A stretch of DNA of 64,000 nt from a virus (IMGVR_UViG_3300032116_000166:1383-65382); one strand, 5' to 3'; numbered from the stretch's first letter, positions 24,186 through 44,800 are shown. Notes: generated by a model from the sequence alone, not told the origin. Made by a program: numbers and translations.

Positions 24186-26611
24186 CAGGCCTACTAGCGG
24201 AAGTAGTCTCTAAAGCTAAGGCCGCTATAGAGGCTGTATCCAAAGCCAAGGCCGACGTGGTACACCTCAGCCGCGCCAAACTCGAGTCGGTTACCTACAG
24301 TGCGAAAACGGTCGCAGAAATAGTTACAGGTGTATTTTTTGCTGTATTTGTTAGAAATTTTTCGGAGGGTGTCAATCTCAGCGAACTGGTACGTAGTGTA
24401 TTTGGCAAAAATGTAACAGATACTGCCAGTTTTAGTGATAGCAACACCAAGGGTGTTGGAAAGAATGTAACGGACCAAACCAATATAGGCGATCCACTGT
24501 CTGTTGTGTTTACCAAGTCGGCAACAGATAGTGCAAGTGTAAGTGATTCTGCAACCAGTGTGTTCACTAAAGTGGTTAGCGACGCCACTAACATAGGTGA
24601 CAGTTTTGACAGAACCTTGCAGTGGTCTAGAAGTTTTACAGAAACTTCTAACTTCAGCGACTCGGCTCTAAGTATCTTTACTAAAGTGGTTAGTGATACC
24701 ACTAATATAAGCGACTCTGCAAACACAACATTTACCAAATCGCTAACAGACTCTAGCAATATAAGTGACTCTGCATTGTCTGTATTTACTAAAGCAGTAA
24801 GTGACAGTATAAACATTACAGACGACGTAAACGGTGCAGCAGTTGATGATGATCAGAATGTGTCGTTTATAAAGGTGTCTACTGATACCACCAACATAAG
24901 TGATATATTTGATCGTACACTTCAGTGGTCAAGAGACTTTAGTGATGGATCAACAGTAACTGACGCCACCACTTCAACCTTTAATAAAAATGTAAGTGAT
25001 ACCTCTAACATAAGTGACTCTGCGTCTAGTGTGTTTACCAAAGTGTCAAGTGACACCACCAACATAAGTGATACATTTGATCGTACAATTCAGTGGTCTA
25101 GAGATTTTACTGATGGTACAAACATAAGCGACGCAGCCGTAAGCGTAGTAGTCAAAGTAGTCAATGACACAAGCAACTTTAGTGACTCTGCTAACTTTGC
25201 ATTTACAAAAGTATTAACTGACTCCAGCAACATAAGCGATACAACAGCTGTAGTATTTACGAAATCACTAGAAGATGCTACAAATATTACAGACTCGTCT
25301 ACAGTTACTTTTGTTAAGGTAGCCAACGATACCACCAATATAAGTGATTCTACACAATCCGTCTTTACTAAATCACTAACAGACTCTAGCAATATAAGTG
25401 ACTCTGCATTGTCTGTATTTACTAAAGCAGTAAGTGACAGTATAAACATTACAGACGACGTAAACGGTGCAGCAGTTGATGATGATCAGAATGTGTCGTT
25501 TATCAAAGTGTCAAGTGATACTACTAATATCGGTGATACATTTGATCGCACACTTCAGTGGTCAAGAGACTTTAGTGATGGTTCTACATTAACAGATTCT
25601 GCAATTGCTGTTTTTGGTAAAAATGAAGCCGACATCTTTAACGTAAGCGACTCTGCGTCTAGTGTGTTTACCAAAGTGTCAAGTGACACCACTAATATCA
25701 GTGATATATTTGATCGTACAATTCAGTGGTCTAGAAGCTTTAGTGACAGTACAAACATTAGTGATTCTACTACAAGTGTTTTTGTCAAAACAACAGGCGA
25801 TGCCACAAATATAAGTGACAGCTTCGATCGTACTGTACAATGGTTTAGAGATTTTACTGATGGTTCAAATATAGGCGATACAAGTTTAACAGTATTTACT
25901 AAAGTTGTTCCAGATACCACAAATATAAGTGATTCTGCTACATACACATTCACCAAAGTAGAACAGGATACTGTAAACTTTGGTGAAATACAGAATACAG
26001 CCTTTACTAAAAATACGACCGAAACAACAAATATAAGTGACATTTTTGATCGTATAGTTCAATGGTCAAGAGATTTCACTGATGGTTCTACGTTATCCGA
26101 TTCTACAGCTTCTGTTTTTACAAAAAATCTCACTGACAGTTTAAATATATCAGATATTACAACTATTGGATTTACTTACTTAAGAGAGCCTATTGATGGT
26201 GTAAATCTTACAGATGACGTCAATGGTGCAGCAATTGATGATGATCAAAGTGTAGTATTTGTTAAAGTTTCTACTGACACTGCAAATATAAGCGATACAT
26301 TTGATCGCACAGTTCAGTGGTCTCGAGATTTTAACGACACCAACAATATAAGTGATAGTTTCAGTCGTACACTACAATGGTCTCGTGATTTCACAGATCA
26401 AAGCAATATTGGCGAAGTTGTACAAAATATACTAACAAAAGTTGCCTCAGACACTACCAATGTTTCTGATAGTTCAACTAGTGTAGTAGGTAAGAATCCG
26501 CAAGACTCCTTTAACTTGGATGACAGTGGAACAATATTAAATCAAGATTATATAGCCGGAGCCGACTACTTCTTACAAGACTATGTAGGGGTTTCCACAA
26601 CATTCAATTGA
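24182..26611 (+). CDS. Repetitive Ser/Thr/Asp-rich virion fibre/stalk protein (~18-aa repeats)
   Basis: About 40 copies of VFTK...D.TNISD, with DRTLQWSRDF variants and three DDVNGAA.DDDQ inserts. Confidence 0.7.
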   Translation: MTGLLAEVVSKAKAAIEAVSKAKADVVHLSRAKLESVTYSAKTVAEIVTGVFFAVFVRNFSEGVNLSELVRSVFGKNVTDTASFSDSNTKGVGKNVTDQTNIGDPLSVVFTKSATDSASVSDSATSVFTKVVSDATNIGDSFDRTLQWSRSFTETSNFSDSALSIFTKVVSDTTNISDSANTTFTKSLTDSSNISDSALSVFTKAVSDSINITDDVNGAAVDDDQNVSFIKVSTDTTNISDIFDRTLQWSRDFSDGSTVTDATTSTFNKNVSDTSNISDSASSVFTKVSSDTTNISDTFDRTIQWSRDFTDGTNISDAAVSVVVKVVNDTSNFSDSANFAFTKVLTDSSNISDTTAVVFTKSLEDATNITDSSTVTFVKVANDTTNISDSTQSVFTKSLTDSSNISDSALSVFTKAVSDSINITDDVNGAAVDDDQNVSFIKVSSDTTNIGDTFDRTLQWSRDFSDGSTLTDSAIAVFGKNEADIFNVSDSASSVFTKVSSDTTNISDIFDRTIQWSRSFSDSTNISDSTTSVFVKTTGDATNISDSFDRTVQWFRDFTDGSNIGDTSLTVFTKVVPDTTNISDSATYTFTKVEQDTVNFGEIQNTAFTKNTTETTNISDIFDRIVQWSRDFTDGSTLSDSTASVFTKNLTDSLNISDITTIGFTYLREPIDGVNLTDDVNGAAIDDDQSVVFVKVSTDTANISDTFDRTVQWSRDFNDTNNISDSFSRTLQWSRDFTDQSNIGEVVQNILTKVASDTTNVSDSSTSVVGKNPQDSFNLDDSGTILNQDYIAGADYFLQDYVGVSTTFN
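24743..25503 (+). repeat. 128-bp identical direct repeat (24743-24870 and 25376-25503)
   Basis: Identical from CTAACAGACTCTAGC to GTGTCGTTTAT; offset 633 bp (211 codons). Confidence 0.85.
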
Positions 26612-26623
26612 AGAAAGGTTTCT

Positions 26624-27088
26624 ATGAATTCCCTAGAAAATCTAAAGTTAACCGGTAGAGTGCATTTTGTAATCACCGGCGAAGACGGAGTAGTAAAAGA
26701 AGAGCGAGTTGAAGACAACTTGGTCGTTACATCCGGATTGACATACATCAGAGACAGAGTAAGCTCTGCAAGCCCTCCTGGTCTAATCACACACATGGAA
26801 CTTGGAACAGGTGCCGTTGCCCCCGTAGCAGGCAACACCACCTTGGGTACCGCACTAGGTACTCGTGGCAGTGTTACAATCACAACACCAACTGCAACAA
26901 GCATTCAGTACAGCTCTAGCTTTATTGCTGGCGCACCTGCTGCTGGTACAAACGCCATTACAGAAGCTGGTCTATTTACCGCAAGCACTGCTGGTACAAT
27001 GCTTTGCCGTGTTACATTTAGTGCTATTAACAAGGCACCAAACGACACAATGACAGTTAACTGGACTATTACACTAGCCGCAGTTTGA
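26624..27088 (+). CDS. Tail-collar fibre (DUF3751-like) structural protein
   Basis: NLVVTSG...MELGTG...ITEAGLF...ML.R.TF..INK...DT.TV.WTIT pattern. Confidence 0.65.
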   Translation: MNSLENLKLTGRVHFVITGEDGVVKEERVEDNLVVTSGLTYIRDRVSSASPPGLITHMELGTGAVAPVAGNTTLGTALGTRGSVTITTPTATSIQYSSSFIAGAPAAGTNAITEAGLFTASTAGTMLCRVTFSAINKAPNDTMTVNWTITLAAV

Positions 27089-27096
27089 TGTTACCC

Positions 27097-27128
27097 AATA
27101 ATGGCGAGAACACTCGCCATTATTTTTA
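27097..27128 (+). terminator. Rho-independent terminator, followed by a second hairpin (27123-27151)
   Basis: AATAATGGCGAG-aaca-CTCGCCATTATT TTT; then TTTTTATGGGGC-tgttt-GCTCCATAAAAA. Confidence 0.7.
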
Positions 27129-27173
27129 TGGGGCTGTTTGCTCCATAAAAATAATGAGCAATCAGGAGCAAAA

Positions 27174-29435
27174 ATGGCAGCTATTACCACAAGACAAACA
27201 GCAGGTACAGGAGCTACCGTTAAGAATGCTCCGTTAACCAATGCAGAAATAGACAATAACTTTATTAATTTAAATACTGATCTTAGTAACGCAGTTTATT
27301 TAAGTGGTACGCAAAGTATCGGTGGAGCCAAAACATTTACTAACAATGTAAATATTAATGGTACATCTAGTGGGGCCATACTAGCTGTAACAAACAGCGG
27401 CACCGGTGTTGGATTGACCGTAGATGATGTTGTAATTTCAGCTAATTCAACAACAGACGCTTTAAGAATTACGCAAATTGGCACCGGAAATGCAATACTT
27501 GTAGAAGACGAAGCCAACCCTGACTCTACTCCGTTTTTAGTAAACGCAACAGGACAGGTCGGAGCTGGAGCAACTCCAGCTACATGGGCCAAACTTACTG
27601 TTGGTGGAATGTATCCGTCCGGCAATAACTTTGCTATTGGTAACTATACAATAGGAACTGTGCCTGCTGCGGCAACCCAAGAAGGCGTAGGATTTTGGTC
27701 AGAACTTTCTACTCAAGCAACAACATTCTCTACTACTCTATCTCACTTTGTTGCTAACCAGGGTGGTTTTGGGGCCGGATCAACAGTAGCTAATCAACAC
27801 GGTTTTAGAGTTTCATCAACTCTTATTGGTGCTACTAACAATTACGGTTTTCATAGTAATATACCAAGTGGTACTGGTCGCTGGAACTTCTATGCGTCCG
27901 GAACTGCCGATAATTACTTTGCTGGCAAAGTAGGTATTGGAGCAGTACCTGCAGCAACTTCTAATGTACGTGTTAGCGGAACTGTAACAGGAAATGTCAA
28001 TCAATACGGTGTCCTATCAGAGCTAACCGCCGCTTCAGACGTCACAAGTATACTAGCCGGGTTTACAAGTTCATTAAATACAGCAGCTTCAGTATTTACT
28101 TTAACAAATTTAAGGCACTTCTTAGCAGGATTTAACGCTATAGGTGCAGGATCAACAGTTACAAATCAGTTCGGTTTTTTTGCTGGGTCCAATCTTACTG
28201 GAGCCACAAATAACTATGGATTTTATAGTGATTTAGCTAGCGGCACAGGTCGTTGGAATTTCTTCGCCAACGGGACTGCAGACAACTATTTTGGCGGCCC
28301 ACTCAAGGTAGGCCAGACGTACTATTCAAATACAGCTTTAGGTATCTTTTGGGCACCTGCTGCCACTAGTGCTACAGGAATATATCAAGATAGTACTATC
28401 AATAGTGCTACAACTACCAGTTACGTATTAAATAGCACGTTTCCTACTACTGCTGCAGCAAGTTTTACACTGCCTACACTAGTACACTATCAAGCTGCTC
28501 AAAATACATTTGGAGCAGGCTCAACAGTAACCAATCAGTTTGGTTTTCGTGTTAATAGTAATCTTATTGGAGCCACAAATAATTACGCATTTTATAGCGA
28601 TATAGCTAGTGGTACTGGTCGTTGGAACTTTTATGCAAATGGCACCGCTCCCAACTACTTTGCTGGAAATGTTACAGTAGCTGCAACAACAACCTCAACC
28701 TCAGCCACAACAGGTGCTTTGGTTGTAAGTGGCGGTGTTGGTGTTGGAGAAAACGTATACATATCCAAATCTTTGATAGTAGGAACTACGCTATCAACAG
28801 GTACTGGCATTGATTTAAATAATAATAATATTGTCGGAGTCAATGCGATTACTTTTGCAGATCCAGGTCCTGGAGAAGGCATTAGTTTTAGTGGTAATTT
28901 TAATATTTATGAAAGTCCAGACGATCTTACTACTAACAGTGCTGGAAACTTACAGTTTGTAAGTGGCGGAGCCAGAAGACTAACAGTCAAAACTTCGGGT
29001 CAAGTAGAGGTAACAGCAACAACAGCATCTACTTCAACCACAACAGGTGCCTTAGTTGTAGGTGGTGGTGTAGGTATTGCTGGTGCACTAAACGCGACAA
29101 CTAAATCATTTATTATCGACCACCCAACAAAACCGAATACCCTATTGAAACACGGTAGTCTAGAGGGCCCAGAGTTTGGTGTGTATGTTCGTGGTAGAAC
29201 ATCGTCAAAGATCATTGAGTTGCCGGAGTATTGGACAAAGCTGGTTGACCCTGCAACAATTACAGTCAACTTAACTCCCATTGGCAATTACCAAAAGTTG
29301 TATGTAGAAAAAATAGAATCCAATTGTGTCTACATTAACGGCGACGATCTATTATCTAATTCTGTTGACTGTTTCTACACCGTTTTTGCTGAACGTTGTG
29401 ACGTTGAAAAACTACAAGTCGAGGTTTCACAATGA
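27174..29435 (+). CDS. Tail fibre protein with three ~125-aa repeats and a C-terminal chaperone-like domain
   Basis: ATG at 27174 after AGGAG. N-terminus ITTR...K.APLTNAEIDNNF.NL; three copies of GATNNY.F.S...SGTGRWNF.A.GTA.NYF; C-terminus KSFIIDHP...LEGPE.GVYVRG...LP.YW...AER.D. Confidence 0.75.
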   Translation: MAAITTRQTAGTGATVKNAPLTNAEIDNNFINLNTDLSNAVYLSGTQSIGGAKTFTNNVNINGTSSGAILAVTNSGTGVGLTVDDVVISANSTTDALRITQIGTGNAILVEDEANPDSTPFLVNATGQVGAGATPATWAKLTVGGMYPSGNNFAIGNYTIGTVPAAATQEGVGFWSELSTQATTFSTTLSHFVANQGGFGAGSTVANQHGFRVSSTLIGATNNYGFHSNIPSGTGRWNFYASGTADNYFAGKVGIGAVPAATSNVRVSGTVTGNVNQYGVLSELTAASDVTSILAGFTSSLNTAASVFTLTNLRHFLAGFNAIGAGSTVTNQFGFFAGSNLTGATNNYGFYSDLASGTGRWNFFANGTADNYFGGPLKVGQTYYSNTALGIFWAPAATSATGIYQDSTINSATTTSYVLNSTFPTTAAASFTLPTLVHYQAAQNTFGAGSTVTNQFGFRVNSNLIGATNNYAFYSDIASGTGRWNFYANGTAPNYFAGNVTVAATTTSTSATTGALVVSGGVGVGENVYISKSLIVGTTLSTGTGIDLNNNNIVGVNAITFADPGPGEGISFSGNFNIYESPDDLTTNSAGNLQFVSGGARRLTVKTSGQVEVTATTASTSTTTGALVVGGGVGIAGALNATTKSFIIDHPTKPNTLLKHGSLEGPEFGVYVRGRTSSKIIELPEYWTKLVDPATITVNLTPIGNYQKLYVEKIESNCVYINGDDLLSNSVDCFYTVFAERCDVEKLQVEVSQ

Positions 29436-29611
29436 TAGTTAAAGCAGTTATTGACCTAAACACTCTACAGTGTGAAACAAGTTCGGCAGTAAATGAGTTA
29501 AAAGTTGTTGATGGAAAACTCTATATAGAATTATCAGAGCCAGACCCAGAATATTTTCAAGGTCTTGGTAAACCTCAGGAAGTAGCATACAATGGCAACA
29601 ATAACCTCTAG
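29432..29611 (+). CDS. 59-aa hypothetical protein missing from the ORF track
   Basis: ATGA overlap with the upstream stop; MIVKAVIDLNTLQCETSS...VAYNGNNNL*; fills the gap to the next gene. Confidence 0.6.
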   Translation: MIVKAVIDLNTLQCETSSAVNELKVVDGKLYIELSEPDPEYFQGLGKPQEVAYNGNNNL

Positions 29612-32066: not shown

Positions 32067-32067
32067 T

Positions 32068-35000
32068 ATGCCAAAAAATGTTGTTATTACACCACTGAGT
32101 GGATTGGTTGATTTTTATGATGCAGCCAGTAACCTAGACGCCAAAATTCAAATCGATGATGCTGGCAGTTTGAATATCTCAAACAGTGGCGGAACCTTGG
32201 TTTTGGGTAACGCCGCCGCCAACGTTTATATCGGTGATGGTACCAACTCCGTTGACGTTATCTTTGAACAGAACGGGGCTATCAGAGCACTTACTGGTAA
32301 GACTCTTACTTTAGGTAACAGTGCTAGTAATATTGCTGTTCAGTCGCCACTAACAATTAATTCGCAAATATTAAATACTACCACAACTGGTTATTTCGAA
32401 GTTCGTCAAACAGTTAGTAGTTGGGGCAATAGTACTAGCCACCCAATCATCAAATGGGATTATAATGCTACATACGATGATCACTTGTACTTAGCAAGTG
32501 GTGGTAATGCCAGTGGCACTACACAGACTGCACTTGTTGTTACTGAAAACGCAGGTGTAGTAATCGGAGCAGGACCAAGTTCCCCCAACAGTAGTAGTAT
32601 TGTATCAACTGAGTGGTTTCGATTTGACAATAGTAGATTTACTATTTCAAGAAATGCAACTCAGTACCTAACCTTTGAAAATAGCGATACAACAACAAAT
32701 CCAATCATTATTTCCTACACCGCAACAAATAATGCAAAACCAATAATATTTGACAGTAAGACCGATGCTGTCAATACAGCACCCACTGCTGGAACACTTG
32801 GATACGAGTTCAGAGTAAATGGTACAAGTGCCCTAACGGTAAACACAGACAGGACTATTACTACCAACACAAATTTGAGTGTTGGTGGCACCCTCAGTGT
32901 TACTGGCAACTTAACTGTGAACGGCACAACTACTACAGTTAATAGTACCACAGTAACTGTGGACGATCCCATCTTTACTCTAGGTGGTGATACCGCACCA
33001 ACTGTAGACGACAACAAAGACCGCGGAGTTGAGTTTCGCTGGCACAATGGTACTGCCGCCAAAGTGGGTTTCTTTGGATTTGATGACAGTACTGGCTACC
33101 TAACATTTATACCTGATGCCACAAATACCAGTGAAGTTTTTAGTGGTACAATGGGCGACATACAGGCTACCAACTTCCGAGGTGCCCTGATTGGTAATGC
33201 TAGTACTGCAACCAATGTGGCTTGGTCAGGAATTACCAGCAAACCTACTACACTTAGTGGTTTTGGAATAACAGACGCATTCTCCTCTAGTGGTGGTACC
33301 ACAACTGGTAATATAACGATTTCAACGGTTCAACCTGTACTAATTCTTAGAGACACGGACAATTCTGGAACAGGTGTAGGCCAAACAGGCTGGATAAGTT
33401 TTCAAGACAGTGCTGGTACAGAGCGCGCATGGATTGGTTATGGATCCTCTGGGTCTACAGACTTCAACATTAGCAACAGTCGTGGACAAATTACAGCTGG
33501 CGGCAATATAATACTAACTGCTGGTAACTATAATAGTTACAGCCCAACCCTAACAGGTACTGGGGCGACTGGTAGCTGGGCTATCTCAGTTACTAGTGCA
33601 GCTAACCAGTCTTCATCAGATGATAGAATAAAAGCACCTGCTGATGACTTTGCTGCAAACAAGAGATTTGGTTTTACTAGCTGGAACAACAACAATACAG
33701 CCCCATACGCAGATTACTTACACTTAAGAAGCTATACAGATAGTAGTGGCGGAAACGATAATTTGGTAATGTTCCGCAAAGACGCATTAGGAATGAGAAT
33801 ATGGCAGCAAACTTATGGTTCTGCTACTGCTTATTCTACATTCAAAGATGTTGCTTGGACTGATGGTACAAACTCAACTGGTACTTGGGGTATCTCAGTT
33901 ACTGGCAGCGCAGGTTCCGTAGCATGGACTAACGTCAGTGGTAGACCAACAACAGTATCTAGCTTTACCAATGATAGTGGATACATTACAAGTGCTTTCT
34001 CAGGCTTTATGCTCAGAAGTACTTCAGTACAAGCTAACCCCAACACTAATTTTGTAAGCAGCGCATATCGTTTTGATCCCAACGCCAATAACCCTACAAA
34101 TGAACACTACGCAATTGTTACCTACGGTAATGAAAGCAACGTTGTAGGTCAACTTGCAACACACTTCACATCTGGTCAAACTTTTACAAGAGCATACAAT
34201 TCTGCATGGTCTTCTTGGAGAACCTTGTTAGATAGTACCAACTATAACAGCTATTCACCAACCTTAACCGGTACTGGAGCTAGTGGTACTTGGAGTATAA
34301 ACGTTACAGGCAGTGCAGGTAGCGCAGGAAGTGTAGCTTGGACAAATGTTAGTGGTCGTCCATCAACTATTGCAGGACTGCTTGGTACAGATTCAGTAAG
34401 TGCCAACCCCAATGTTAGACTTGGTAGCGGCTACTATCAAAACGATGCTGCTAGTTCTGCAAATAATTGGCCTGTTGGATCTTCAAGTTGGTGGCATCTG
34501 CACAGTGTTACACACAGTAATACTGCAAATTACTATTCTATGCAATTTGCAGCAGATTTTTATGCTAATAATTTATACTATCGTTCCACTAACGGAAGTG
34601 CCGCTACCAGCTGGTCTAGAGTATTACTTGATACAAACTACAATAGTTACAGTCCGACCTTAACAGGTACTGGTGCTAGCGGTACTTGGGGTATCTCAAT
34701 CACTGGTAGCGCGTCATCAAATGTACTAAAATCTGGCGACACAATGAGTGGGGACCTATCCTTCTCAAACGGTAGAAAAGGCCTTGTAGGAGTTTACAAC
34801 GCTTCTCAAACTCAGGCTGTTTTTGCCATGGGATCGTCATACCGATTAACCGACGGTGGAGCAAGTAATGTATATGGTGACTTCTATGGTATGGCTTGGT
34901 CTTATGATCCAGACTACGGTGGTGCTGGAAACAATCCACAATCTAAGGCAGGATTAGCACATCAATTATTGATAATGAATGCTGGTGTGACCAGAACCGC

Positions 35001-36396
35001 CATAGGTAATGGTATATGGACCAGTGGTGCAATTAGTCAGAACGGTAATCAAGTCTTACATGCTGGCAATTATACTAGCTACAGTCCAAGCCTAACAGGT
35101 AGTGGGGCCAGTGGTACTTGGGGTATAAATGTTACAGGCAACTCAGCTACAACGTCTCAAAGAACATTCTCCAATGTTCGTACCGACGGTATTAATAGAG
35201 GTTCTTACGGAGCTATATCAATCGCAGGATCTAGTGGTAGTTATTCAGGTATTGATTTTACTGATGCTTCTGTTACTTTTATGGTCAGAACAAGTGACCA
35301 ACTAACTGGCGTATACAAAAATAACAGTGCTTGGTTGTGGTATTTTGATGGTTCCGGCGTACTACAGGCCGGTTCTATTCCACAAAATAACATAAGCGGT
35401 GGTAACTTAGTCTCAGTACTGCAACCAACTCACGGTGATAGCGGAAGATTAATACAGTCACTCAATGCCAGTGCCGGTAATGCCGTACAGTTTTATATAG
35501 AACATAACTTAGCCAATGTAGCCATAGGCAATTCACGCGGCAATATCAATATAGCTGCTGGATCATTACTACACGGTGGCAACCAAGTCTTACATGCAGG
35601 CAACTATACTAGTTACAGCCCTAGTCTTACTGGTAGCGGTGCTAGCGGTACTTGGGGTATTAGTATTACAGGTAATGCTGCTACAGCAACAACTGCTTCT
35701 AATACTACTGCTGTTGCCGGATATGATATTAGCTGGGGATACGTTGCTGGAGCTCCTTATTATATCTGGGGAACAGCAAGCGGTACAGGTACAACCAGAG
35801 TATATGCTGCTAGTGAAGTAAGTGTTGGAACCGCTACGTATTCCACATATGTAGGAAGCTCCAGCCTATGGACAACAGGCGGCCAAGATCTATACGGTCG
35901 TTCAAAGCGAGTAGCAGTAGCCTCTGTCGGTAACGTAGTATACAACTACGGTGGCGACTTTACTAATGCAGAAATTCAGAGTTCTTTATTAGTTACTGGA
36001 AACGTTACAGCCTATTCTTCGGATCGTAGATTAAAAACCAATGTCAAGCCTATCGACAATGCTTTGACAAAGATCTCCAAATTGTCTGGATTTACTTTTA
36101 ACTGGAACGATACTGCTAAAACTTTGGCTAAGTATGACACAGAAAAAGTAGAAGTAGGCGTTTTTGCACAAGATGTTTTAGAAGTACAGCCAGAAGCAGT
36201 CAAATCGGCACCTTTCGATGTACACTATGAAACAGGACAGTCTATATCAGGCGAACACTATTTAACGGTACAGTACGACAGACTTGTTCCGCTTTTAATA
36301 GAAGCAATAAAAGAGTGTTCAAACTATCTGGATAAACAAGAGGCCAGAATCAATAAACTAGAAGACATGTTAATGTCTTTATCAACAAAGGAATAA
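32068..36396 (+). CDS. Long tail fibre with peptidase S74 intramolecular chaperone
   Basis: VTAYSSDRRLKTNV..I.NAL.KI.KL.G.TF.WN...G.FAQDV..V.PEAV...LVPLLIEAIKE; knob-like domains separated by repeated linkers. Confidence 0.88.
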   Translation: MPKNVVITPLSGLVDFYDAASNLDAKIQIDDAGSLNISNSGGTLVLGNAAANVYIGDGTNSVDVIFEQNGAIRALTGKTLTLGNSASNIAVQSPLTINSQILNTTTTGYFEVRQTVSSWGNSTSHPIIKWDYNATYDDHLYLASGGNASGTTQTALVVTENAGVVIGAGPSSPNSSSIVSTEWFRFDNSRFTISRNATQYLTFENSDTTTNPIIISYTATNNAKPIIFDSKTDAVNTAPTAGTLGYEFRVNGTSALTVNTDRTITTNTNLSVGGTLSVTGNLTVNGTTTTVNSTTVTVDDPIFTLGGDTAPTVDDNKDRGVEFRWHNGTAAKVGFFGFDDSTGYLTFIPDATNTSEVFSGTMGDIQATNFRGALIGNASTATNVAWSGITSKPTTLSGFGITDAFSSSGGTTTGNITISTVQPVLILRDTDNSGTGVGQTGWISFQDSAGTERAWIGYGSSGSTDFNISNSRGQITAGGNIILTAGNYNSYSPTLTGTGATGSWAISVTSAANQSSSDDRIKAPADDFAANKRFGFTSWNNNNTAPYADYLHLRSYTDSSGGNDNLVMFRKDALGMRIWQQTYGSATAYSTFKDVAWTDGTNSTGTWGISVTGSAGSVAWTNVSGRPTTVSSFTNDSGYITSAFSGFMLRSTSVQANPNTNFVSSAYRFDPNANNPTNEHYAIVTYGNESNVVGQLATHFTSGQTFTRAYNSAWSSWRTLLDSTNYNSYSPTLTGTGASGTWSINVTGSAGSAGSVAWTNVSGRPSTIAGLLGTDSVSANPNVRLGSGYYQNDAASSANNWPVGSSSWWHLHSVTHSNTANYYSMQFAADFYANNLYYRSTNGSAATSWSRVLLDTNYNSYSPTLTGTGASGTWGISITGSASSNVLKSGDTMSGDLSFSNGRKGLVGVYNASQTQAVFAMGSSYRLTDGGASNVYGDFYGMAWSYDPDYGGAGNNPQSKAGLAHQLLIMNAGVTRTAIGNGIWTSGAISQNGNQVLHAGNYTSYSPSLTGSGASGTWGINVTGNSATTSQRTFSNVRTDGINRGSYGAISIAGSSGSYSGIDFTDASVTFMVRTSDQLTGVYKNNSAWLWYFDGSGVLQAGSIPQNNISGGNLVSVLQPTHGDSGRLIQSLNASAGNAVQFYIEHNLANVAIGNSRGNINIAAGSLLHGGNQVLHAGNYTSYSPSLTGSGASGTWGISITGNAATATTASNTTAVAGYDISWGYVAGAPYYIWGTASGTGTTRVYAASEVSVGTATYSTYVGSSSLWTTGGQDLYGRSKRVAVASVGNVVYNYGGDFTNAEIQSSLLVTGNVTAYSSDRRLKTNVKPIDNALTKISKLSGFTFNWNDTAKTLAKYDTEKVEVGVFAQDVLEVQPEAVKSAPFDVHYETGQSISGEHYLTVQYDRLVPLLIEAIKECSNYLDKQEARINKLEDMLMSLSTKE

Positions 36397-36397
36397 T

Positions 36398-36745: not shown

Positions 36746-36755
36746 ATATAGCCAA

Positions 36756-36841: not shown

Positions 36842-37807
36842 ATGGCGTTACAAAGCTCTGGTGCTATTTCAATGTCAAATATAAATGTGGAACTTGGATA
36901 CAGTGCCACAGCAACCATTAGTTTAAATGATGGCCCTGTACGAGCACTACTACAAAGAAGTAGTGGAAACGTGTCTATGAGTGATGCACATGGAAAGAGC
37001 GCATGTGCCGCGTACGGAACATTTATAACTTCTTATTGTAGCGGTTATAGTTTATATTATAGATATGCGAATGGAAGTTGTGGAACCTATGATACATTAA
37101 TTGAAAATAATTCTACTAGTTGTGGATATTGTCCTCCTTCTGGTACATACGACAGCCAGTACTGTAGCGGATACAATTTATATTATAGGTATGCAAATGG
37201 AAGTTGTGGAACCTATGACTCATTAGTTGAAAGTAATTCTACTACTTGTGGATATTGTCCTCCTTCTGGTACCTACTTAAGTCAATACTGTAGCGGTACT
37301 ACGTTATACTATAGATACGCAAACGGAAGTTGTGGGTACTACGACTCTATTTATGCGTATAACAGTACAACTTGTGGATGGTGTCAAACATATGGAGTAC
37401 AAGTCGGTACTGAATGCCAAGGATACAATCTATATGACGTATACGCAGATGGAAACTGTGGTACTTATCTAGTATTTATAACTGGTAATGCAAATCAATG
37501 TGGTTACACTAGTGGAATATGTAGTGGATGTTCTGGTGCTAGCCAAGGCCTTGGCGGAGGCGATACTATGTACTACTATGTAGCTAGTGCTACAACTGGC
37601 TTTTGTGGTTGGGGATGTAATGGTGTATTTACTAGTGATTCTAATTGGGATTGTATTGCTACTGTTCAGGGAACTTATCCGCCCGGCGGGTCTGGTTATG
37701 TATATCTACAAAGAACAGGTTGCAGCAGTAACTTTTGTAGTGCAAGTTACAATGGGGCTTATACAAATGCGTGGACTTCAGCCTGGTGTGCTGTTACCTG
37801 TTGTTAA
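36842..37807 (+). CDS. Fibre-tip adhesin: gp38-like anchor, four 42-aa Cys repeats, LCCL-like C-domain
   Basis: MALQSSGAISMS.IN.ELG...ISLND..VR.L...SG..SMSD..GKS anchor; 126-bp DNA periodicity; WG.NGVFTSDS...G...GG.G.V...G....F..S.NG..T..W..W C-terminus. Confidence 0.65.
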   Translation: MALQSSGAISMSNINVELGYSATATISLNDGPVRALLQRSSGNVSMSDAHGKSACAAYGTFITSYCSGYSLYYRYANGSCGTYDTLIENNSTSCGYCPPSGTYDSQYCSGYNLYYRYANGSCGTYDSLVESNSTTCGYCPPSGTYLSQYCSGTTLYYRYANGSCGYYDSIYAYNSTTCGWCQTYGVQVGTECQGYNLYDVYADGNCGTYLVFITGNANQCGYTSGICSGCSGASQGLGGGDTMYYYVASATTGFCGWGCNGVFTSDSNWDCIATVQGTYPPGGSGYVYLQRTGCSSNFCSASYNGAYTNAWTSAWCAVTCC

Positions 37808-39000: not shown

Positions 39001-39591
39001 ATGGCAAGTCCAACAAAACTGAACCTAAAAGTTTATCAGGGCAGTACCTTTCGTGAAACATTGCGTTGGGAAAGTGCTCTAAAAGTCTACTCACCTATCA
39101 CAAACATTTCAAAGAGCGCCCCAATGATAGTCACTGCCGCAGGACATGGAATCCCGGTGGGTTGGCGAGCAAAAATTAATGGTGCCTTAGGAATGAAAGA
39201 AGCCAATACTGGTGATACTTACCTAACTACCAGCGAGGTTACCACTAACTCAGTAACTTTCAATGCCATCAATGCACTAAACTATACAACATATACTGGT
39301 GGTGGGGTCTTGGAGTACAATCAACCAGTAGATTTAGCCGGATACACTGCCAGAATGCAGATCAGGGCTAAGTTAGACGACACAGCCGTGATTAAAGAAT
39401 TAACCACTACAAATGGTGGAATTATTATTGACAACACAGCAAAAACTATTCAAATGTATATTTCAGCCACCGACACAGCAGCCCTTTCTTTCCAGAATGC
39501 AGTGTATAGCCTAGAACTAGTAGGTAGTGGTGGAGAGGTTACTCAATTGGTAAATGGAACCTTAACCCTAGTTCGTGAGGTAACCAGATGA
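39001..39591 (+). CDS. Collar / LtfC(p132)/BppU-like adaptor with internal inserted domain
   Basis: YQGSTF...W / PVDLAGYTARMQIR...LTT.NGGI...ISA.DT..L....VY.LEL...G.VT.L..G......EVT. Confidence 0.7.
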   Translation: MASPTKLNLKVYQGSTFRETLRWESALKVYSPITNISKSAPMIVTAAGHGIPVGWRAKINGALGMKEANTGDTYLTTSEVTTNSVTFNAINALNYTTYTGGGVLEYNQPVDLAGYTARMQIRAKLDDTAVIKELTTTNGGIIIDNTAKTIQMYISATDTAALSFQNAVYSLELVGSGGEVTQLVNGTLTLVREVTR

Positions 39592-40085
39592 GTGACAGTT
39601 ACATAGCAGTAGAAGTAGAAAAGAATCAAACCGTTATTGCAACCCAGTCAGAAAACTTGGTTGTACCTACTGCCACTGTTGAAACTGTTGTAGCCAGTGG
39701 TGGTTTTCAGGGACCCCAAGGTATTCAAGGCCAAACTGGTCCTCAGGGCATTCAAGGTATACAGGGTATACAAGGTATACAGGGTGTACAGGGTATTCAA
39801 GGTGAAGCTGCTACTGTCGAAGTAGGTACAGTTGCTACCAGTAGTCCTGGTGGGGCTGCAGCTGTAACAAATTCTGGCACAAACAACGACGCTGTTTTAA
39901 ATTTTACAATACCACAAGGCATTCAAGGCCCTCAGGGTATTCAGGGTATTCAAGGTATCCCTGGTGAAAGCAACCTTGGTGGATACACAATTTCAATAAC
40001 CAGCCCACAACAGGGCGATCTGATTCAATTCGGTATGACTAACCAGTGGATCAACAGTAATCTTACCGATGGAGGTAATTTTTAA
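39588..40085 (+). CDS. Collagen-like fibre stalk protein
   Basis: Two (G-X-Q)n tracts flanking ...NSGT...AVLNFTIP.G; ends DGGNF. Confidence 0.85.
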   Translation: MSDSYIAVEVEKNQTVIATQSENLVVPTATVETVVASGGFQGPQGIQGQTGPQGIQGIQGIQGIQGVQGIQGEAATVEVGTVATSSPGGAAAVTNSGTNNDAVLNFTIPQGIQGPQGIQGIQGIPGESNLGGYTISITSPQQGDLIQFGMTNQWINSNLTDGGNF

Positions 40086-41857
40086 TGGCTAATACAATCC
40101 GAATCAAGAGACGGGCCGCTGGTGGAGCTGCTGGAGCACCAGGTAGTCTATTTAATGCCGAATTGGCATTCAACGAACAAGATAACACCCTGTACTATGG
40201 TTATGGTGTTAGTAGTGGTAGTACAGCAGCTAGCGTAGTACCTATTGCTGGTAAGGGTGCTTTTGCTGACCTTACAACAAATCAGACCATTGGTGGTATT
40301 AAAACTTTTAGTAGTACTATTAGCGCTAGTATTGATGGTAACGCTGCTACTGCTACAAAGTGGGCAAGTGGCATCAACATAGCAGTAAGTGGTGATATTA
40401 GCGGTACTACTTCTACCTTTGATGGTAGTGGCAATGGTACATTGAGTTTAACGCTTGCCACAGTTAATAGTAGTCCAGTAACAGGCCTATTACAGAAGAT
40501 TACCACTAATGCTAAGGGCCTAGTAACTGCAACAAGTAACGCAGTCTTAAACGACATTGGAGCTCCTACTAGCAGTTTTAGCTTTAACAGCCAAAACTTG
40601 ACTGGATTGGCAGATCCTGTTAACGCACAAGACGCAGCCACAAAGAATTATGTTGACAATGTAGCTCAGGGCCTAGACCCTAAGGGCTCAGTAAAAGCTG
40701 CAACCACTGCCAACATCACACTGAGTGGTCTACAAAACATTGACGGTATCAGCGTTGCCGCTAACGATCGCGTGTTGGTTAAAAACCAGAGTGCGGCCAG
40801 CCAAAACGGTATCTACGTAGCAAGCGCAAGTGCTTGGACCAGAGCAACTGACATGAGCAGTTGGGCAGAAGTTCCCAATGCTTTCGTATTCGTTGAAGAA
40901 GGTAGTACACAGGCTGATAGTGGTTGGGTTGTAACCAGCAATCAGGGCGGCACATTAGATACAACAGCTATCAACTGGGTACAGTTCAGCGGAGCTGGTA
41001 GCTATACCGCTGGTAATGGTCTAGAGCTTACAGGTAATGCGTTTTCTGTCAAGGCTGATGGTAATACAATCACTGTGGCTGCTGCAGGTATCAAGGTCAG
41101 TGACACCTATGCTGGTAATACTAGCCTAACAACTTTGGGTACAGTTGGCACTGGTACATGGCAGGCCTCAGTCATTGGCGCCACCTACGGCGGTACTGGT
41201 GTTAATAATGGCAGTAACACTATCACACTTGGTGGTAATGTTGTTACTGCAGGTGCTTTCTCAACAAGTGGTGCTAACGCTCTTACACTTACTACCACTG
41301 GTGCAACCAACGTAACCTTACCAACAACTGGTACGTTGGTCAACACAGCAGTTACTACATTGAGTAGCTTGGCTAGTATTGGTACTGTTACAACTGGTAC
41401 TTGGAATGCAGGCGTAATCGCTGGTCAGTATGGTGGTACTGGTGTAGCCAACACTGGCAAAACAATTACACTTGGTGGTAATATTACCACAGGTGGAGAC
41501 TTTACACTAAGTGGTGCATTTACTACCGCCATTACAGTAACTGGCAACACAAGTGTTACACTACCAACAACTGGTACATTGGTCAACACAGCCGTTACTA
41601 CATTGAGTAGCTTGGCTAGTATTGGTACTATCACAACCGGTGTGTGGAATGGTAGTACAATAGGTGTTGCCTATGGTGGTACAGGTGCCACAACATTTAC
41701 CACAAACGCTGTACTATACGGTAACGCACAAGGTGCTATCGGTGCAACAAGCACAGCAGGCACTTGGGACAGTGCAAACTCAGTAGGTCAATTACTGAGT
41801 GTAGATTCCAGCGGTACACCAACTTGGACCAATCTGGTCGACGGCGGAACATTCTAA
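40085..41857 (+). CDS. Tail fibre protein (Mtd-N-like N-terminus)
   Basis: MANTIRIKRR...AP.SL..AELAFNE....LYYG; DAATKNYVD; DRVLVKNQ...QNGIY; YGGTG repeats; ends DGGTF. Confidence 0.8.
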   Translation: MANTIRIKRRAAGGAAGAPGSLFNAELAFNEQDNTLYYGYGVSSGSTAASVVPIAGKGAFADLTTNQTIGGIKTFSSTISASIDGNAATATKWASGINIAVSGDISGTTSTFDGSGNGTLSLTLATVNSSPVTGLLQKITTNAKGLVTATSNAVLNDIGAPTSSFSFNSQNLTGLADPVNAQDAATKNYVDNVAQGLDPKGSVKAATTANITLSGLQNIDGISVAANDRVLVKNQSAASQNGIYVASASAWTRATDMSSWAEVPNAFVFVEEGSTQADSGWVVTSNQGGTLDTTAINWVQFSGAGSYTAGNGLELTGNAFSVKADGNTITVAAAGIKVSDTYAGNTSLTTLGTVGTGTWQASVIGATYGGTGVNNGSNTITLGGNVVTAGAFSTSGANALTLTTTGATNVTLPTTGTLVNTAVTTLSSLASIGTVTTGTWNAGVIAGQYGGTGVANTGKTITLGGNITTGGDFTLSGAFTTAITVTGNTSVTLPTTGTLVNTAVTTLSSLASIGTITTGVWNGSTIGVAYGGTGATTFTTNAVLYGNAQGAIGATSTAGTWDSANSVGQLLSVDSSGTPTWTNLVDGGTF

Positions 41858-41898
41858 CTTTTTAACAACCCTCCTATATAGGACAACAAGGGAGCCAT

Positions 41899-44800
41899 AT
41901 GGCAAACGTAATAAAACCAAAGCGTTCAAACACAGCAGCTGCTGTACCCACCACCGGCCAATTGGCTGGTGGTGAGATTGCAGTAAACATGGCAGATCGA
42001 AAGATCTGGATCAATAATGGTACTGCAGTAGTACAAGTAGGTGCAGGCAATTTGAGCGCACTGGGTGACGTAGTGATCACATCTCCATCAAATGGTGATG
42101 TAATACAATACAACAGCTCTAGCTCTACTTGGATAAATGGTGGTGTTGTTGCATCTACTGCTTCAAATATAAGCGGTGGTGCAACAAATCAGATAGTATA
42201 TCAAACAGGTACAAATACTACCAATTTTATTACGGCTCCCACAACTGGTGACACATATTTAAAGTGGACAGGTAGTGCTTTTAGCTGGGCCAGTGTGTCT
42301 GGCACTGGTGACATGGCCAAAGCCACTTATGACACCAACAACAACGGCAAAGTAGACTCGGCAGAAACTGCTGATGCAGTACCTTGGACTGGAATTACCG
42401 GCAAACCTACTTTTGCCGCTGTGGCTACTAGCGGACTATACAGCGACTTAAGTGGCACTCCTGTAATTGGTACAAATATCCAAGCCTGGAGTTCTAACCT
42501 TGATAGCTGGAGTGCGATTAGTACTACCAGCAAACAAGACACACTGACGAGTGGTACAAATATCAAGAGTATAGACGGCACTTCGTTGTTAGGTAGTGGT
42601 GACTATACCGTACTACCCACAGTGGGCCAAGCAACCGGCGACATACACGGTGTTGTAACACGCTCAGCGAGTACCCTGAGCTTTAATGAGGGTACTAGAA
42701 CTTTTACTATTGCTCCTGTTAGTGGTAGTTGGACTTTCTACAATAAAGGTACATTGTACACAATTAGTACCTCTAAGTCACTACAGATTGCAGACGTCAG
42801 TGGCACCACATTTATACGTTTCAACATTAATACTCTGGAACTGGAACAGTATGGACCAATTCCTGATTTTACAAATGACGTAATAGTTGCCTATATCTAC
42901 TGGAATGCCACAACCCAAAAATGTATTATTTTGGGTGACGAACGTCATGGCAGCAAGCGAGATACCACTTGGCACAGCAATCAACACCTGAACGTTGGTA
43001 CAGTCTGGAGAAGTGGTGGCGGTTTAACCTATACTCTCAACAATGCCAGCAGTGTACAGTTGGGTGTAGGTACGCCACTTGTATTGGCAGACGAAGACTT
43101 GGCACATACTATCAACCATAGTGCCACACCAACAGCAGACTATGAGCAAGTCCTAAATACTGCAGCCAGTTTAGAGGTATTATATCTAAACGGCACATCA
43201 TACACAGCCACAACGCAAAGCACTACTCCTTGGATAGCAGGTACTAGTTTGGCTCGTTATAATTTTGTAACTGGCGGAAGTGGTAGTTTGGTAGATGCTG
43301 CTGAAGGCAAGTATATTACTTACTGGCTATTGGGCACAAACGATACACGTAGACCTGTAAAATTGGTATTAGGCAGAGCAGAACACAGTTCTATAGATGC
43401 CGCATATGCAGAAGAATTTACTGAGTATGGATTGAGTTTTGCAGAACAGGTGTTTATGTACCAGATTGTGGTACAGACCAGTGCCAGTTATACTGCCAAC
43501 GCTGCAAAAATTGTAGTAGCAGGTGTTCGTAAAGTATTAAGTAAAGTCTCTACAAGTGCCAGTACCGTAAGTGCAACACAGCACAACGTACTGACCGGCC
43601 GCGAAAGTGCAGATGCTCACCCTATTGCAAGTATAACCAACCTACAGACTGCATTAGACGGTAAGCAGGCTACGTTGGTAAGTAACACAAATATTAAAAC
43701 TGTCAATAACAACAGCTTGTTAGGCAGTGGTAACATAGCAGTACAAGAAGTACTGGTAAGTAACACAAATATTAAAACTGTCAATAGCAATAGCTTGTTA
43801 GGCAGTGGCGACATAGCAGTACAAGAAGTATTAACAAGTGGCACAAATATTAAGAGTATCAATGGTAACAGCCTATTAGGCAGTGGCGACTTAACAATTG
43901 CTGGATCATCACAATCAGTTAGTGCAACAATAACTGCTGGTACCAATACTCAGGGTCAAGGTGCCCTCACCAGCGATTACAATATCGTCACTAGTACTCC
44001 TAACAATCCTAGCGCGGTAACCCTACCAACAGCAACTGCTGGCCGAACTATTAAAATTGTAAACAAGGGTACAAATGCTGTAAATATTTACCCTGCTACA
44101 GGTGCACAAATTGATGCTTTAGGGACTAACGCCTTCTATGACCTGCCAGTAAATGCAATCATTGAGGTTAATGCAAGTAGTACAACACAGTGGTACAGTA
44201 CTGGCAATACAGACATTACTCGTCTTGGAAGTATCTTTATTAACGAGTTTACGACTACAGTAACCAGCGGTACCACTGTAACACTGACTAATGATAGTAG
44301 TTATTACCAAGAATTTACTGGTACAACTGCCCAGACTGTTTTACTGCCCAATGCAACTACATCAACTGCTGGACTGGTATTTGAAATAATTAATAACAGT
44401 ACTGCCACACTAACGGTACAGACTTCTACTGCTGCTACTATAGCAACTGTACCACCAAGCTTAGCTGCTAAATTGGTTTTGAGTACTACGGCTTTTAATA
44501 CAACAGCTTCATGGGAGTTTGAGTACTCGGGGTTTGCCACTATTACTGGCACTGGCAATAACGTATTGTCTGTTGCTCCAACACTATCAAGCCTGTCTTT
44601 AGCTGCAGGTACAGCTACAGCAGGTACAGCTCCACTAAAGCTAACAAGTGGTGTTAACCTAACGGCTGCAGAAGCTGGTGCTATAGAGTTTGATGGGGCC
44701 ACCCTATACGGTACAGCCAACACCACTAATGGTCGCGGCTTTATACCACTCACATACTACTATCGCTTAGCAGCAAACGGTGCTAACATTGGTGCTGCTA

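Follow-up and report, generated by a model that had tools for sequence, protein, structure and literature searches.

A C-terminal DGGxF tail and the N-terminal domain of the next gene in viral tail-fibre modules: a putative fibre joint of the T4 gp36-gp37 kind

Two consecutive fibre genes in a 64-kb stretch of viral DNA (64,000 nucleotides, here called the window) code for proteins that end in nearly the same few residues, and each is followed by a gene whose product starts with the same type of domain. The question raised by this locus is whether such tails and domains are the two halves of a physical joint between separately made fibre trimers, as a sequence-only reading of the window had proposed, or whether the arrangement has another cause. 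The window belongs to a siphovirus whose tape measure is 2631 aa long; the features of the fibre module (39001-45234) are as follows.

39001..39591, + strand: 196-aa protein matching phrog_1084 (E 1.2e-28), first gene of the fibre module
39588..40085, + strand: 165-aa collagen-like adaptor, putative first link of the chain (Pfam Collagen match; translation)
40059..40082, + strand: tag 1, NLTDGGNF-COOH, adaptor residues 158-165 (translation; modelled interface)
40085..41857, + strand: 590-aa middle fibre, in which a type-A N-domain is followed by a shaft and the C-terminus is formed by a hairpin with the tag (matches to PHROG families for tail fiber and structural proteins)
40085..40222, + strand: putative type-A N-terminal docking domain, middle-fibre residues 1-46, MANTIRIKRR...AELAFNEQDNTLYYGYG (HMM from alignment A3, 93.3 bits)
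41831..41854, + strand: tag 2, NLVDGGTF-COOH, middle-fibre residues 583-590 (translation; DNA pattern)
41899..45234, + strand: 1111-aa distal fibre with type-B N-domain and without C-terminal tag (translation; phrog_29752 over residues 1-120)
41899..42036, + strand: putative type-B N-terminal docking domain, distal-fibre residues 1-46 (homologous to the T4 gp37 N-terminus)

All strings quoted in the sequence-only reading are present in the window, and its description of the module was borne out. The adaptor, whose Collagen match (PF01391, 30.7 bits) lies above the Pfam gathering cut-off of 27.2, ends in ...WINSNLTDGGNF, and its stop codon shares one base with the start of the middle fibre (TAATG). 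The middle fibre begins with MANTIRIKRRAAGGAAGAPGSLFNAELAFN and ends in ...PTWTNLVDGGTF, while the gene at 41899 begins with MANVIKPKRSNTAAAVPTTGQLAGGEIAVN and its product, the last fibre, ends in ...ANASALAA, with no tag. Adaptor and middle fibre are otherwise unrelated, since the best segment between them in BLASTP is the 9-residue tail (E 0.39) and nothing else is in common, but the type-A and type-B domains that follow them, each of about 45 residues, are homologous (hhalign probability 98%, E 1.9e-13), and AF2 pLDDT is 88-95 across residues 1-50 of the distal fibre. At the DNA level the window has two occurrences of the D-G-G-x-F-stop pattern, where 100 shuffles give an expectation of 0.00, and among window ORFs of at least 60 aa a strict or loose tag is carried by the adaptor and the middle fibre only. 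A hairpin, G-x-V-L-x-Y...W-x-N, precedes the tag and is also found inside the third fibre at residues ~63-82. The 196-aa protein is presumed to anchor the chain and the 1111-aa fibre to be its receptor-binding end.

The succession of tag and domain is real and general. A tag-based scan of viral contigs gave at least 119 matches, 113 of which end an ORF, 102 of these with at least 150 nt downstream; among the matches listed, 100 of the 102 tag-ended ORFs have the N-domain motif after them (95 within 100 nt), and the 6 matches outside real ORF ends all lack it. As an empirical null, the strict tag ends 0 of 2157 opposite-strand ORFs against 223 of 1870 fibre-strand ORFs (at least 60 aa). This strong enrichment is the opposite of one of the two findings that the sequence-only reading had named as refuting it. 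Scans that started from the N-domains, each limited to the 80 nearest among more than 570 relatives, gave the same picture from the other side: all 80 type-A loci are tagged upstream, 69 strictly and 11 with a variant (NGG or DGA), and among 79 type-B loci the strict tag stands upstream in 63 and is missing in 11, while 5 have no sequence upstream. D, G, G and N of tag 1 are invariant or nearly so in 108 relatives. The type-B family is N-terminal in all of the best 150 of 22,110 library representatives, and 149 of these 150 terminal type-B proteins have no C-terminal tag. The loci are not independent, as some contigs came up in more than one scan and many pairs have common ancestry (single linkage of 258 pairs put 214, then 223, into one cluster), so these counts are inflated by synteny.

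The gene order anchor, collagen, fibre, fibre recurs as well. We found 83 three-gene chains, with type A before type B in every one, and of 23 loci with a relative of the 196-aa protein, 21 have a tagged ORF as the next one. The three-gene chain is also present in cultured phages of differing kinds: Ralstonia phage PY059YO380, Synechococcus siphophage S-CBS2 and a Zobellviridae Vibrio phage. Exceptions exist on both sides of the junction. Among the closest of the more than 570 relatives, a strict tag at the very end of the upstream protein is missing for 11 of 74 type-B genes; for 4 of these the upstream tag carries 21 further residues and for 1 a single extra residue, 3 come after S74-chaperone fibres with putative mature ends (...TAYAS, ...VAYSS) that are not tags, and 3 are other cases. 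The upstream end in S-CAM9 is likewise of S74 type. Conversely, a tagged ORF is followed by a gene without the domain, of MLYNGD... type, in four loci (L043, L048, L242, L247), and by other such genes in three more (L164, L189, L218).

T4 gp36 and gp37 bind each other end to end. According to excerpts of two reviews, gp36 attaches by its C-terminal end to the N-terminal end of gp37 (PMC9603124), whose N-terminal region is the binding site of gp36 (PMC3004832); the former excerpt adds that no atomic structure exists of the whole long tail fibre (PMC9603124). Against residues 1-100 of gp37, the distal fibre of the window shows 42% identity over 36 residues in BLASTP (E 3e-8), the middle fibre reaches E 2e-4, and gp37 scores 57.2 bits with our family profile A6; the homologous type-B domain starts at residue 1 in both gp37 and the distal fibre. 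T4 gp36 in turn ends in ...SVQDFGYY, a variant of the window tails NLTDGGNF and NLVDGGTF, with gp37 beginning 8 nt later, and further variants are found in other phages (DFGTY in PG7, DYGTY in Ac42, DFGAY in phiR1-RT) and in two viral loci (DFGTF in L168 and L177). Because gp37 starts with a type-B domain, gp36 ends in DFGYY and their binding is known, the window joint belongs to a known kind: it is a further case, and a generalisation at the level of motifs, of the T4 gp36-gp37 joint. There are differences. The upstream tagged protein of T4 belongs to the gp36 family, whereas those of the window are not gp36 homologues (no match to PF03903 at E <=0.01, against 178.1 bits for T4 gp36), and no gp34- or gp35-named family of Pfam or PHROGs matched among the 14 proteins scanned. 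The window has two successive joints, A and B, with a collagen-like first link, in a siphovirus. In the excerpts of the T4 fibre reviews, tag and domain are not described as motifs (PMC9603124, PMC3004832).

We consider it likely that the module builds an end-to-end fibre from separate trimers, whose tails clip onto the N-domain of the next trimer in a joint homologous to that of T4. The order in the fibre would be the small anchor protein, the collagen-like adaptor, the 590-aa middle fibre and the 1111-aa distal fibre. Adaptor and middle fibre would each present a beta-hairpin and then the tail h-D-G-G-x-F-COOH, and the three tails of one trimer would line up, as added beta-strands, with the N-domain's first strand in the next trimer (residues ~3-9, TIRIKRR or VIKPKRS), so that strand addition to the ~45-residue N-domain clips the two trimers together. 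The first joint would combine an x = N tail with a type-A domain and the second an x = T or S tail with a type-B, gp37-like domain; the last fibre would need no tail.

The other refuting finding, a lack of contact between tag and domain, did not turn up either: a complex was modelled for joint 1 with three copies of middle-fibre residues 1-100 and three of the last 66 adaptor residues, using custom alignments. The ipSAE, which is the model's own confidence, was 0.85 in all 3 runs against 0.02 for the best of 3 controls. In the calibration, 116 of 157 solved complexes got to 0.85, as did 2 of 215 mismatched pairs; with custom alignments and a 3+3 assembly that differs from the calibration cases, these counts are only a rough guide here. 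The runs share at least 98% of contacts, with partner pLDDT of at least 79. In this 3+3-chain model the tag is placed alongside the first N-domain strand, and the interface consists of N-domain residues 1-11, 19-20, 25 and 28 and partner residues 59-66, which are the tag, plus 42-44 and 46. From the adjacency enrichment and this controlled model we infer that the DGGxF tail pairs with the N-domain of the next gene, as the sequence-only reading had suggested.

Two other explanations, both improbable in our judgement, deserve weighing. Tag and N-domain might be module boundaries, that is, recombination joints kept by synteny for the swapping of fibre genes, with no contact between them. Variable fibre bodies with conserved ends are what such boundaries would produce, the tag is the sole feature common to many upstream C-terminal contexts, and many of the pairs are clearly homologous gene pairs. 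What is conserved, though, is the amino acids, with free choice of codons; the two tags of the window differ in their codons, and its two junctions have no DNA repeat in common. Judging by these codons, selection at the tag is on the protein rather than on the DNA. Moreover, the tag is exactly C-terminal and missing in terminal fibres, it sits on the domain in a model with clean controls, and gp36-gp37 binding is established in T4. The module-boundary and joint explanations are compatible, because a conserved physical joint would itself permit module swaps.

Equally unlikely is that the tail works for the protein that bears it, as a C-terminal nucleus of folding or trimerisation or as a handle for a chaperone, while the next domain attaches elsewhere. 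Many fibres do fold from the C-terminus, and the conserved hairpin before the tag recurs inside the third fibre, but terminal fibres manage without the tail, the tag letter co-varies with the domain type of the next gene, and in the model the tag touches the first strand of the partner. Far less probable still, and largely refuted by spaced junctions, is the proposal that the DGG codons (GAU GGA GG) are constrained as nucleotides, being the Shine-Dalgarno site of a coupled next gene: among unique junctions, 81 are tight (gap of at most 12 nt), and of these 47 have GGAG in the tag codons and 47 have GGA as the first Gly codon, and the first junction of the window reads GGAGGTAATTTTTAATG, but in 91 junctions spaced by at least 25 nt each of these is seen in 7 while DGG is kept with codons that are mostly GGC or GGT, tag 2 of the window is spelled GAC GGC GGA and a separate ribosome site lies 41 nt further along, and the T4 tail is DFGYY. 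As the DGG peptide is kept in spaced junctions, any role as ribosome site would be a secondary dual use and not the cause of its conservation.

Within the preferred explanation, a joint between tail and N-domain, the variable letter of the tag follows the domain type. The 258 unique pairs comprise 159 of type A, 131 of them with x = N, and 99 of type B, where x is mostly T (76) or S (15) and N occurs once; exceptions include that one type-B gene, whose upstream tail is DGGNF, and 2 type-A genes preceded by x = T. Within a three-gene chain the first and second tag nearly always carry different letters (82 of 83). The sequence-only reading had called the pairs orthogonal: the association of letter and domain type stands, and discrimination between partners is what we infer from it. 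The two sub-types probably keep the order of the joints, x = N with type A and T or S with type B. More tentatively, tail and N-domain sub-type could form a small addressing code across tailed phages (myo-, sipho- and podoviruses, T4 included), in which, with the same reserve, DGGN-F would go with type A and DGG(T/S)-(F/Y) with the gp37-like type B. Additional letters may be DFGxY and NGGxF, and additional domain variants a short GQIAID type and an RRG...GEP type. It is conceivable, if somewhat doubtful, that under such a code the tag codons of tight junctions also provide the ribosome-binding site for the gene that follows. If true, the code would fix the joining order of separately made trimers, fibre architecture could be read from the genome and modules could be exchanged at will.

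Other known systems resemble this one in part. Mtd_N (PF18454) matches 14 of 61 type-B relatives (best 6.7e-6) and 3 of 108 type-A relatives (best 6.9e-7) at E <=1, and the window's own two N-domains had no match to it in Pfam at that threshold. With the modelled N-domain, Foldseek ranked chains of BPP-1 Mtd and streptococcal HylP at the top, all at E >=0.58 and with Mtd 1yu1 first (E 0.58, TM 0.33 normalised to the query); hhalign against a single Mtd sequence found nothing. Mtd of Bordetella phage BPP-1 is located at the fibre ends and encoded downstream of the putative tail-fibre gene bbp9, whose product ends in ADLGGIA, a tag only by loose likeness; judged from their titles, the crystal structures of Mtd and HylP do not contain the partner. 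In the neck fibre of Nostoc/Anabaena myophage A-1(L), gp82-gp81-gp80, trimers from neighbouring genes are joined head to tail as proposed for the window, and N-terminal hairpins of one trimer hold the previous one, according to an excerpt of its description (PMC10966104); unlike the window proteins, none of the three has a DGGxF tail or the N-domain, and the long tail fibre of A-1(L) starts with a different 'shoulder' domain. Conserved N-terminal anchors are described more generally as linking variable fibres either with the tail or with a further fibre and as allowing module exchange, and the T7-like adaptor, gp12 N-terminal repeats and Orf210 N-terminal domain are named as such; the excerpts of these sources say nothing of a tag at the upstream partner's C-terminus (PMC12143355, bioRxiv 10.64898/2026.05.12.724579).

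Upstream of the module, in cassette 1 and the S74 region, the sequence-only reading had proposed two further pairings, which concern the following genes.

24182..26611, + strand: 809-aa repeat 'stalk' with Tyr/Asp-rich tail ...NQDYIAGADYFLQDYVGVSTTFN (translation; tail kept in 9 syntenic loci)
27174..29435, + strand: ITTR fibre, MAAITTRQTAG...PLTNAEIDNNFINLN (765-aa ORF; relatives with varied upstream neighbours)
32068..36396, + strand: 1442-aa fibre with C-terminal Peptidase_S74 (PF13884) chaperone domain (Pfam)
36398-36745: DUF7936 gene, between the S74 fibre and the 321-aa protein
36842-37807: Cys-rich 321-aa protein (two PHROGs of unknown function, residues 1-56)

Neither pairing was supported. 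The Tyr/Asp-tailed stalk, thought to be matched to the ITTR fibre, is found two genes upstream in 9 of 34 ITTR loci with upstream sequence, and the ITTR...PLTNAEIDNNF domain is preceded by at least 3 different upstream contexts; the co-occurrence is no more than synteny of close relatives. The 321-aa protein, taken for a 'gp38-like' anchor preceded by the S74 fibre, does not adjoin that fibre because the DUF7936 gene intervenes, and it matched no gp38 family in Pfam or PHROGs. The Peptidase_S74 domain itself scores 62 bits against a Pfam cut-off of 22, over residues 1318-1379 of the 1442-aa fibre. In the ORF list the ITTR fibre starts at a TTG (27138), and the ATG at 27174 is its likely start.

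The bacteria that a phage can find are set by multi-part fibres, whose genes mostly carry the annotation 'hypothetical', and to our knowledge the ordering of separate fibre proteins is known in detail for only a few model phages. The source virus record studied here has 65,382 bases and an estimated completeness of 62%. PHROG matches place a siphovirus tail module in the window (tail terminator, major tail protein, two assembly chaperones, tape measure and large distal tail proteins), with fibre genes, an endolysin, PhoH and replication genes downstream of it. The 2631-aa tape measure protein implies an unusually long non-contractile tail. The fibre genes form two cassettes, each opened by a small protein, and the features discussed here have the following window coordinates:

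4179-12074: tape measure protein, 2631 aa
23778-24185: 135-aa small protein that opens cassette 1
24182-37807: cassette 1 of fibre genes
24182-26611: 809-aa protein with ~20-residue repeats nearly throughout
36842-37807: 321-aa protein with four Cys/Tyr/Gly-rich units (YCSGY.LYYRYANGSCGTYD...NST.CGYCPPSGTY) and a Cys-rich tail
39001-45234: cassette 2 of fibre genes
39001-39591: 196-aa small protein that opens cassette 2
39588-40085: 165-aa collagen-like protein (Pfam Collagen, 30.7 bits, cut-off 27.2), C-terminus WINSNLTDGGNF
40085-41857: 590-aa fibre, C-terminus PTWTNLVDGGTF
42085-42145: internal hairpin copy of the 1111-aa fibre, residues about 63-82, just past its N-domain

In cassette 2, the 165-aa protein (the adaptor) ends in NLTDGGNF and the 590-aa fibre (the middle fibre) in NLVDGGTF, a D-G-G-x-F tag with a variable letter x. 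The gene after the adaptor starts with MANTIRIKRR...AELAFN and the gene after the middle fibre, which codes for the 1111-aa distal fibre, with MANVIKPKRS...GEIAVN; these start domains of ~45 residues are referred to as type-A and type-B N-domains, and the two tail-domain pairs as joint 1 and joint 2. A sequence-only reading had proposed that each tail is paired with the N-domain of the next gene. All the strings it quoted were found in the window, and the last fibre, the 1111-aa protein, ends without a DGGxF-type tail as it had noted. When the adaptor and the middle fibre were compared by BLASTP, the tail was the sole common part (E 0.39). The D-G-G-x-F-stop pattern occurs twice in the DNA of the window against 0.00 expected from 100 shuffles, and the tag, in its strict or loose pattern, is absent from all other window ORFs of at least 60 aa. 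Homologues of the 196-aa protein (phrog_1084) lie directly upstream of the tagged ORF (adaptor) in 21 of 23 loci. Both tags are preceded by a hairpin (G-D-x-I-Q-[FY]...W-I-N), which recurs untagged within the distal fibre, SNGDVIQYNSSSSTWINGG, and looks like a small reusable module.

Our results show that the adjacency of tag and N-domain is enriched across viral contigs. When these were scanned for N-L-x-D-G-G-x-F-TAA, at least 119 matches were found and, among those listed, the tag coincided with an ORF end in 113 of 119; 102 of these 113 had at least 150 nt of downstream sequence, and in 100 of the 102 the next gene carried the N-terminal motif. Among the same listed matches, the distance between tag and N-motif gene was at most 100 nt in 95 of the 100, with a gap of exactly 2 nt in 54, and the motif lay 135-231 nt downstream in 5, a group counted without one-by-one inspection. 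The two listed misses, with x = W or E, appear to be chance matches, and none of the six listed matches whose tag lies elsewhere than at the end of a real ORF has the N-motif downstream. The search was also led by the N-domain, with small alignments (A2 for type B, A3 for type A) that yielded the closest 80 of 586 and the closest 80 of 575 relatives, respectively. Upstream of type B (79 loci) the strict tag was found at 63, no tag at 11 and no upstream sequence at 5, and upstream of type A (80 loci) the strict tag was found at 69 and a variant, such as INGGNF or VDGANF, at 11. At these loci, which are not independent of one another, as each scan kept the closest relatives and some contigs entered more than one scan, the strict tag ended 223 of 1870 ORFs of at least 60 aa on the fibre strand versus 0 of 2157 on the opposite strand, the empirical null. 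Single-linkage BLAST clustering of the upstream proteins put 214, then 223, of 258 pairs in one cluster because of low-complexity fibre sequence; the C-terminal contexts upstream nevertheless vary visibly, and the carriers span different morphotypes.

The type-A and type-B domains are homologous (hhalign probability 98%, E 1.9e-13, 41 columns), and the letter x of the tag follows the domain type across 258 unique tag/domain pairs, being N in 131 of 159 type-A pairs, and T in 76, S in 15 and N in 1 of the 99 type-B pairs. Gene order is fixed: every one of 83 three-gene chains reads X -> A -> B, links from A to A or from B to A number 0 and those from B to B number 2, and the letters of the two tags are unlike in 82 of the 83. 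At E <=0.001, a library of 1.84 billion proteins contains 22,110 representatives of type B. Among the best 150 of these the match begins at residue 1-5 in all 150 and the C-terminal tag is missing in 149, which fits type B as the presumptive last link of the chain. DGGTF-tailed fibres are often followed by a gene with a shortened start, x-x-P-x-I-x-x-G-Q-I-A-I-D-P-x-x-G-x-F-F-Y (viral-contig loci L213, L215, L226, L228, L239, L251 and others). This start resembles the N-domain's second half minus the basic first strand, and may be a third docking sub-type. Shortened or more divergent N-domain versions, of the GQIAIDP... type and the IRLRRG...GEPAWD type, follow some tagged fibres and suggest further sub-types.

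Joint 1 was modelled as a complex of residues 1-100 of the middle fibre with the C-terminal 66 residues of the adaptor, three copies each, with a 108-row alignment per chain and rows in matching order. The tag sits on the N-domain in this model, with an ipSAE of 0.85 in 3 of 3 runs versus 0.02 for the best of three controls. In a benchmark, 116 of 157 solved complexes and 2 of 215 mismatched pairs scored at least that high, counts that are only rough for joint 1, which used its own alignments and a 3+3 job unlike the calibration set. Contacts were at least 98% alike between runs and partner pLDDT was at least 79. The modelled interface joins N-domain residues 1-11, 19-20, 25 and 28 to partner residues 59-66, which are exactly NLTDGGNF, and to hairpin residues 42-44 and 46; every tag contacts two N-domain chains, and the lowest-error residue pairs (N-domain/partner) are 4/60, 6/62 and 8/64. 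In the model, the tag reads as a strand that runs alongside, and parallel to, the domain's first strand. No PDB chain with the N-domain turned up in sequence searches with the profiles for type B (A2) and type A (A5); the top E-values (0.36 and 0.13, respectively) belong to unrelated stretches or the shaft motif of TP901-1 BPP. Since no solved structure has the domain, by sequence, it is improbable that the high model score merely reproduces a solved complex.

The tag could also be read at the nucleotide level. In tight junctions its Gly-Gly codons spell GGAG(G) ~9-12 nt ahead of the next start (window 40068-40087 and sampled loci), and GGAG lies within the Gly codons of 47 of 81 unique junctions with a gap of at most 12 nt, so that there the tag doubles as the Shine-Dalgarno site of the next gene. 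In spaced junctions (at least 25 nt), GGAG is found in only 7 of 91 and GGC and GGT predominate among the Gly codons, yet the peptide is still DGG; therefore, the constraint acts on the protein. Tag codons vary freely among loci and differ between the two tags of the window.

The closest known counterpart is the long tail fibre of T4. Searched by tblastn with a representative type-B domain, cultured phages gave 164 matching records, among them many from cyanomyophages and the 'long tail fiber distal subunit' of T4-like phages. T4 gp37 scores 57.2 bits against the type-B profile, and the 1111-aa fibre aligns directly with it at 42% identity over 36 residues (E 3e-8). T4 gp36 ends in ...KDSVQDFGYY, with gp37 starting 8 bases on, and the tails ahead of equivalent gp37 starts are DFGTY in PG7, DYGTY in Ac42 and DFGAY in phiR1-RT. 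According to two reviews, the N-terminal region of gp37 is bound by trimeric gp36 (PMC3004832), the contact is between the C-terminal end of gp36 and the N-terminal end of gp37, and the whole long tail fibre is described as having no atomic structure (PMC9603124). Thus, the joint of the window corresponds to the gp36-gp37 joint of T4 in another setting, where, unlike in T4, the upstream tagged proteins are not gp36 homologues. A three-gene chain whose last member is untagged occurs in several cultured phages: Ralstonia phage PY059YO380 (89-aa collagen-like protein ending ...LTDGGNF, 466-aa fibre ending ...TIDGGTF and 226-aa fibre), Synechococcus siphophage S-CBS2 (gp050-052) and a Zobellviridae Vibrio phage. 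At the DNA level, comparison with cultured phages gave short patches only.

Pfam Mtd_N was reached by 14 of the 61 type-B relatives and 3 of the 108 type-A relatives, and by neither N-domain of the window; a Foldseek search with the modelled N-domain put Mtd and HylP chains on top, weakly, with no row at E <=0.001, and hhalign of the type-B profile A6 against a single Mtd sequence gave a probability of 0.1%. In BPP-1, Bbp9, encoded before Mtd, ends in ADLGGIA. The fibres of A-1(L), prompted by Foldseek row 8kec, were rejected as kin, as its neck-fibre chain and long tail fibre have neither tag nor domain.

Conserved N-terminal anchors, and C-termini that possibly join other fibre proteins, are known ideas in the available text of PMC3004832, bioRxiv 10.64898/2026.05.12.724579, PMC12143355 and PMC9603124, and that text holds neither the tag nor its pairing. 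Among the full-text matches listed for the tag strings in the accessible literature there was no phage paper, and the same literature on the gp36-gp37 junction, head-to-tail fibres and Mtd attachment gave no tag description. The central idea of the sequence-only reading is right and general, and the chain of the window, with its predicted binding, adds to the known T4-type head-to-tail joint and generalises it at motif level. With the pair of tail and start domain, fibre gene chains and their proximal, middle and distal roles become readable from sequence. The pair also offers a concrete molecular picture for the gp36-gp37 joint, so far described, in the sources as available, as a C-terminal end that binds an N-terminal end. 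If the sub-types discriminate partners, they would be natural orthogonal connectors to build or swap fibre modules in phage-host pairs of the laboratory.

Eleven type-B genes have no terminal strict tag upstream. In four related cases (L143, L167, L169, L170), TIDGGTF is followed by an in-frame hydrophobic extension of 21 residues (LWIVGITSLVLNAVL...VSC), as if a stop codon had been lost, and in one (L178) a single residue is added (TIDGGTFS). The upstream fibre ends in an S74 chaperone in three, and the other three are other cases. The mature end of the S74 fibres was rejected as a tag, the residues ahead of the putative cleavage site not being tags. The gene after some tagged fibres is missing the N-domain. 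No fused 'Rosetta stone' form, with tag and domain in frame, was found among the loci or the best 150 of 22,110 library proteins, and the tag precedes none of the four domains that have over 25 residues of in-frame sequence ahead of them. One of the four is at L218 (4175-6122), where a gene that comes after a DIDGGTF-tailed protein has its N-domain internal, behind an extra domain of 106 residues and a Thr-Pro linker.

Cassette 1 gave no support to the earlier proposals. The Tyr/Asp tail of the 809-aa stalk, conserved in syntenic relatives, had been paired with the fibre two genes on that starts with ITTR...PLTNAEIDNNF, and no link between them was found. Relatives of this start domain were found in 40 loci, of which 35 were examined (L286-L320), 34 with upstream sequence. 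The window-like order (stalk ending ...NQDY..G.DYF..DYVG, 150-190-aa protein, fibre) is present in 9 of the 34, a ~900-aa protein with an 81-aa coiled-coil protein in about 10, an S74 fibre in 7 and other genes in the remainder. Judged by these relatives, the ITTR domain is a second widespread predicted N-terminal anchor, and the gene sets upstream of it are of at least three kinds; if the Tyr/Asp tail docks, the adjoining 154-aa protein is a likelier candidate partner than the ITTR fibre. The 321-aa Cys-rich protein, taken for a gp38-like anchor behind the S74 fibre, matches no gp38 family in Pfam or PHROGs, and a DUF7936 gene stands between the two; its PHROG matches, of unknown function, cover the first 56 residues only. 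PHROGs of unknown function are also the sole matches of the 809-aa protein, whose repeat units are S-D-S-x-x-S-V-F-T-K-x-x-S-D-T-T-N-I-S-D and F-D-R-T-L-Q-W-S-R-D-F-T-D.
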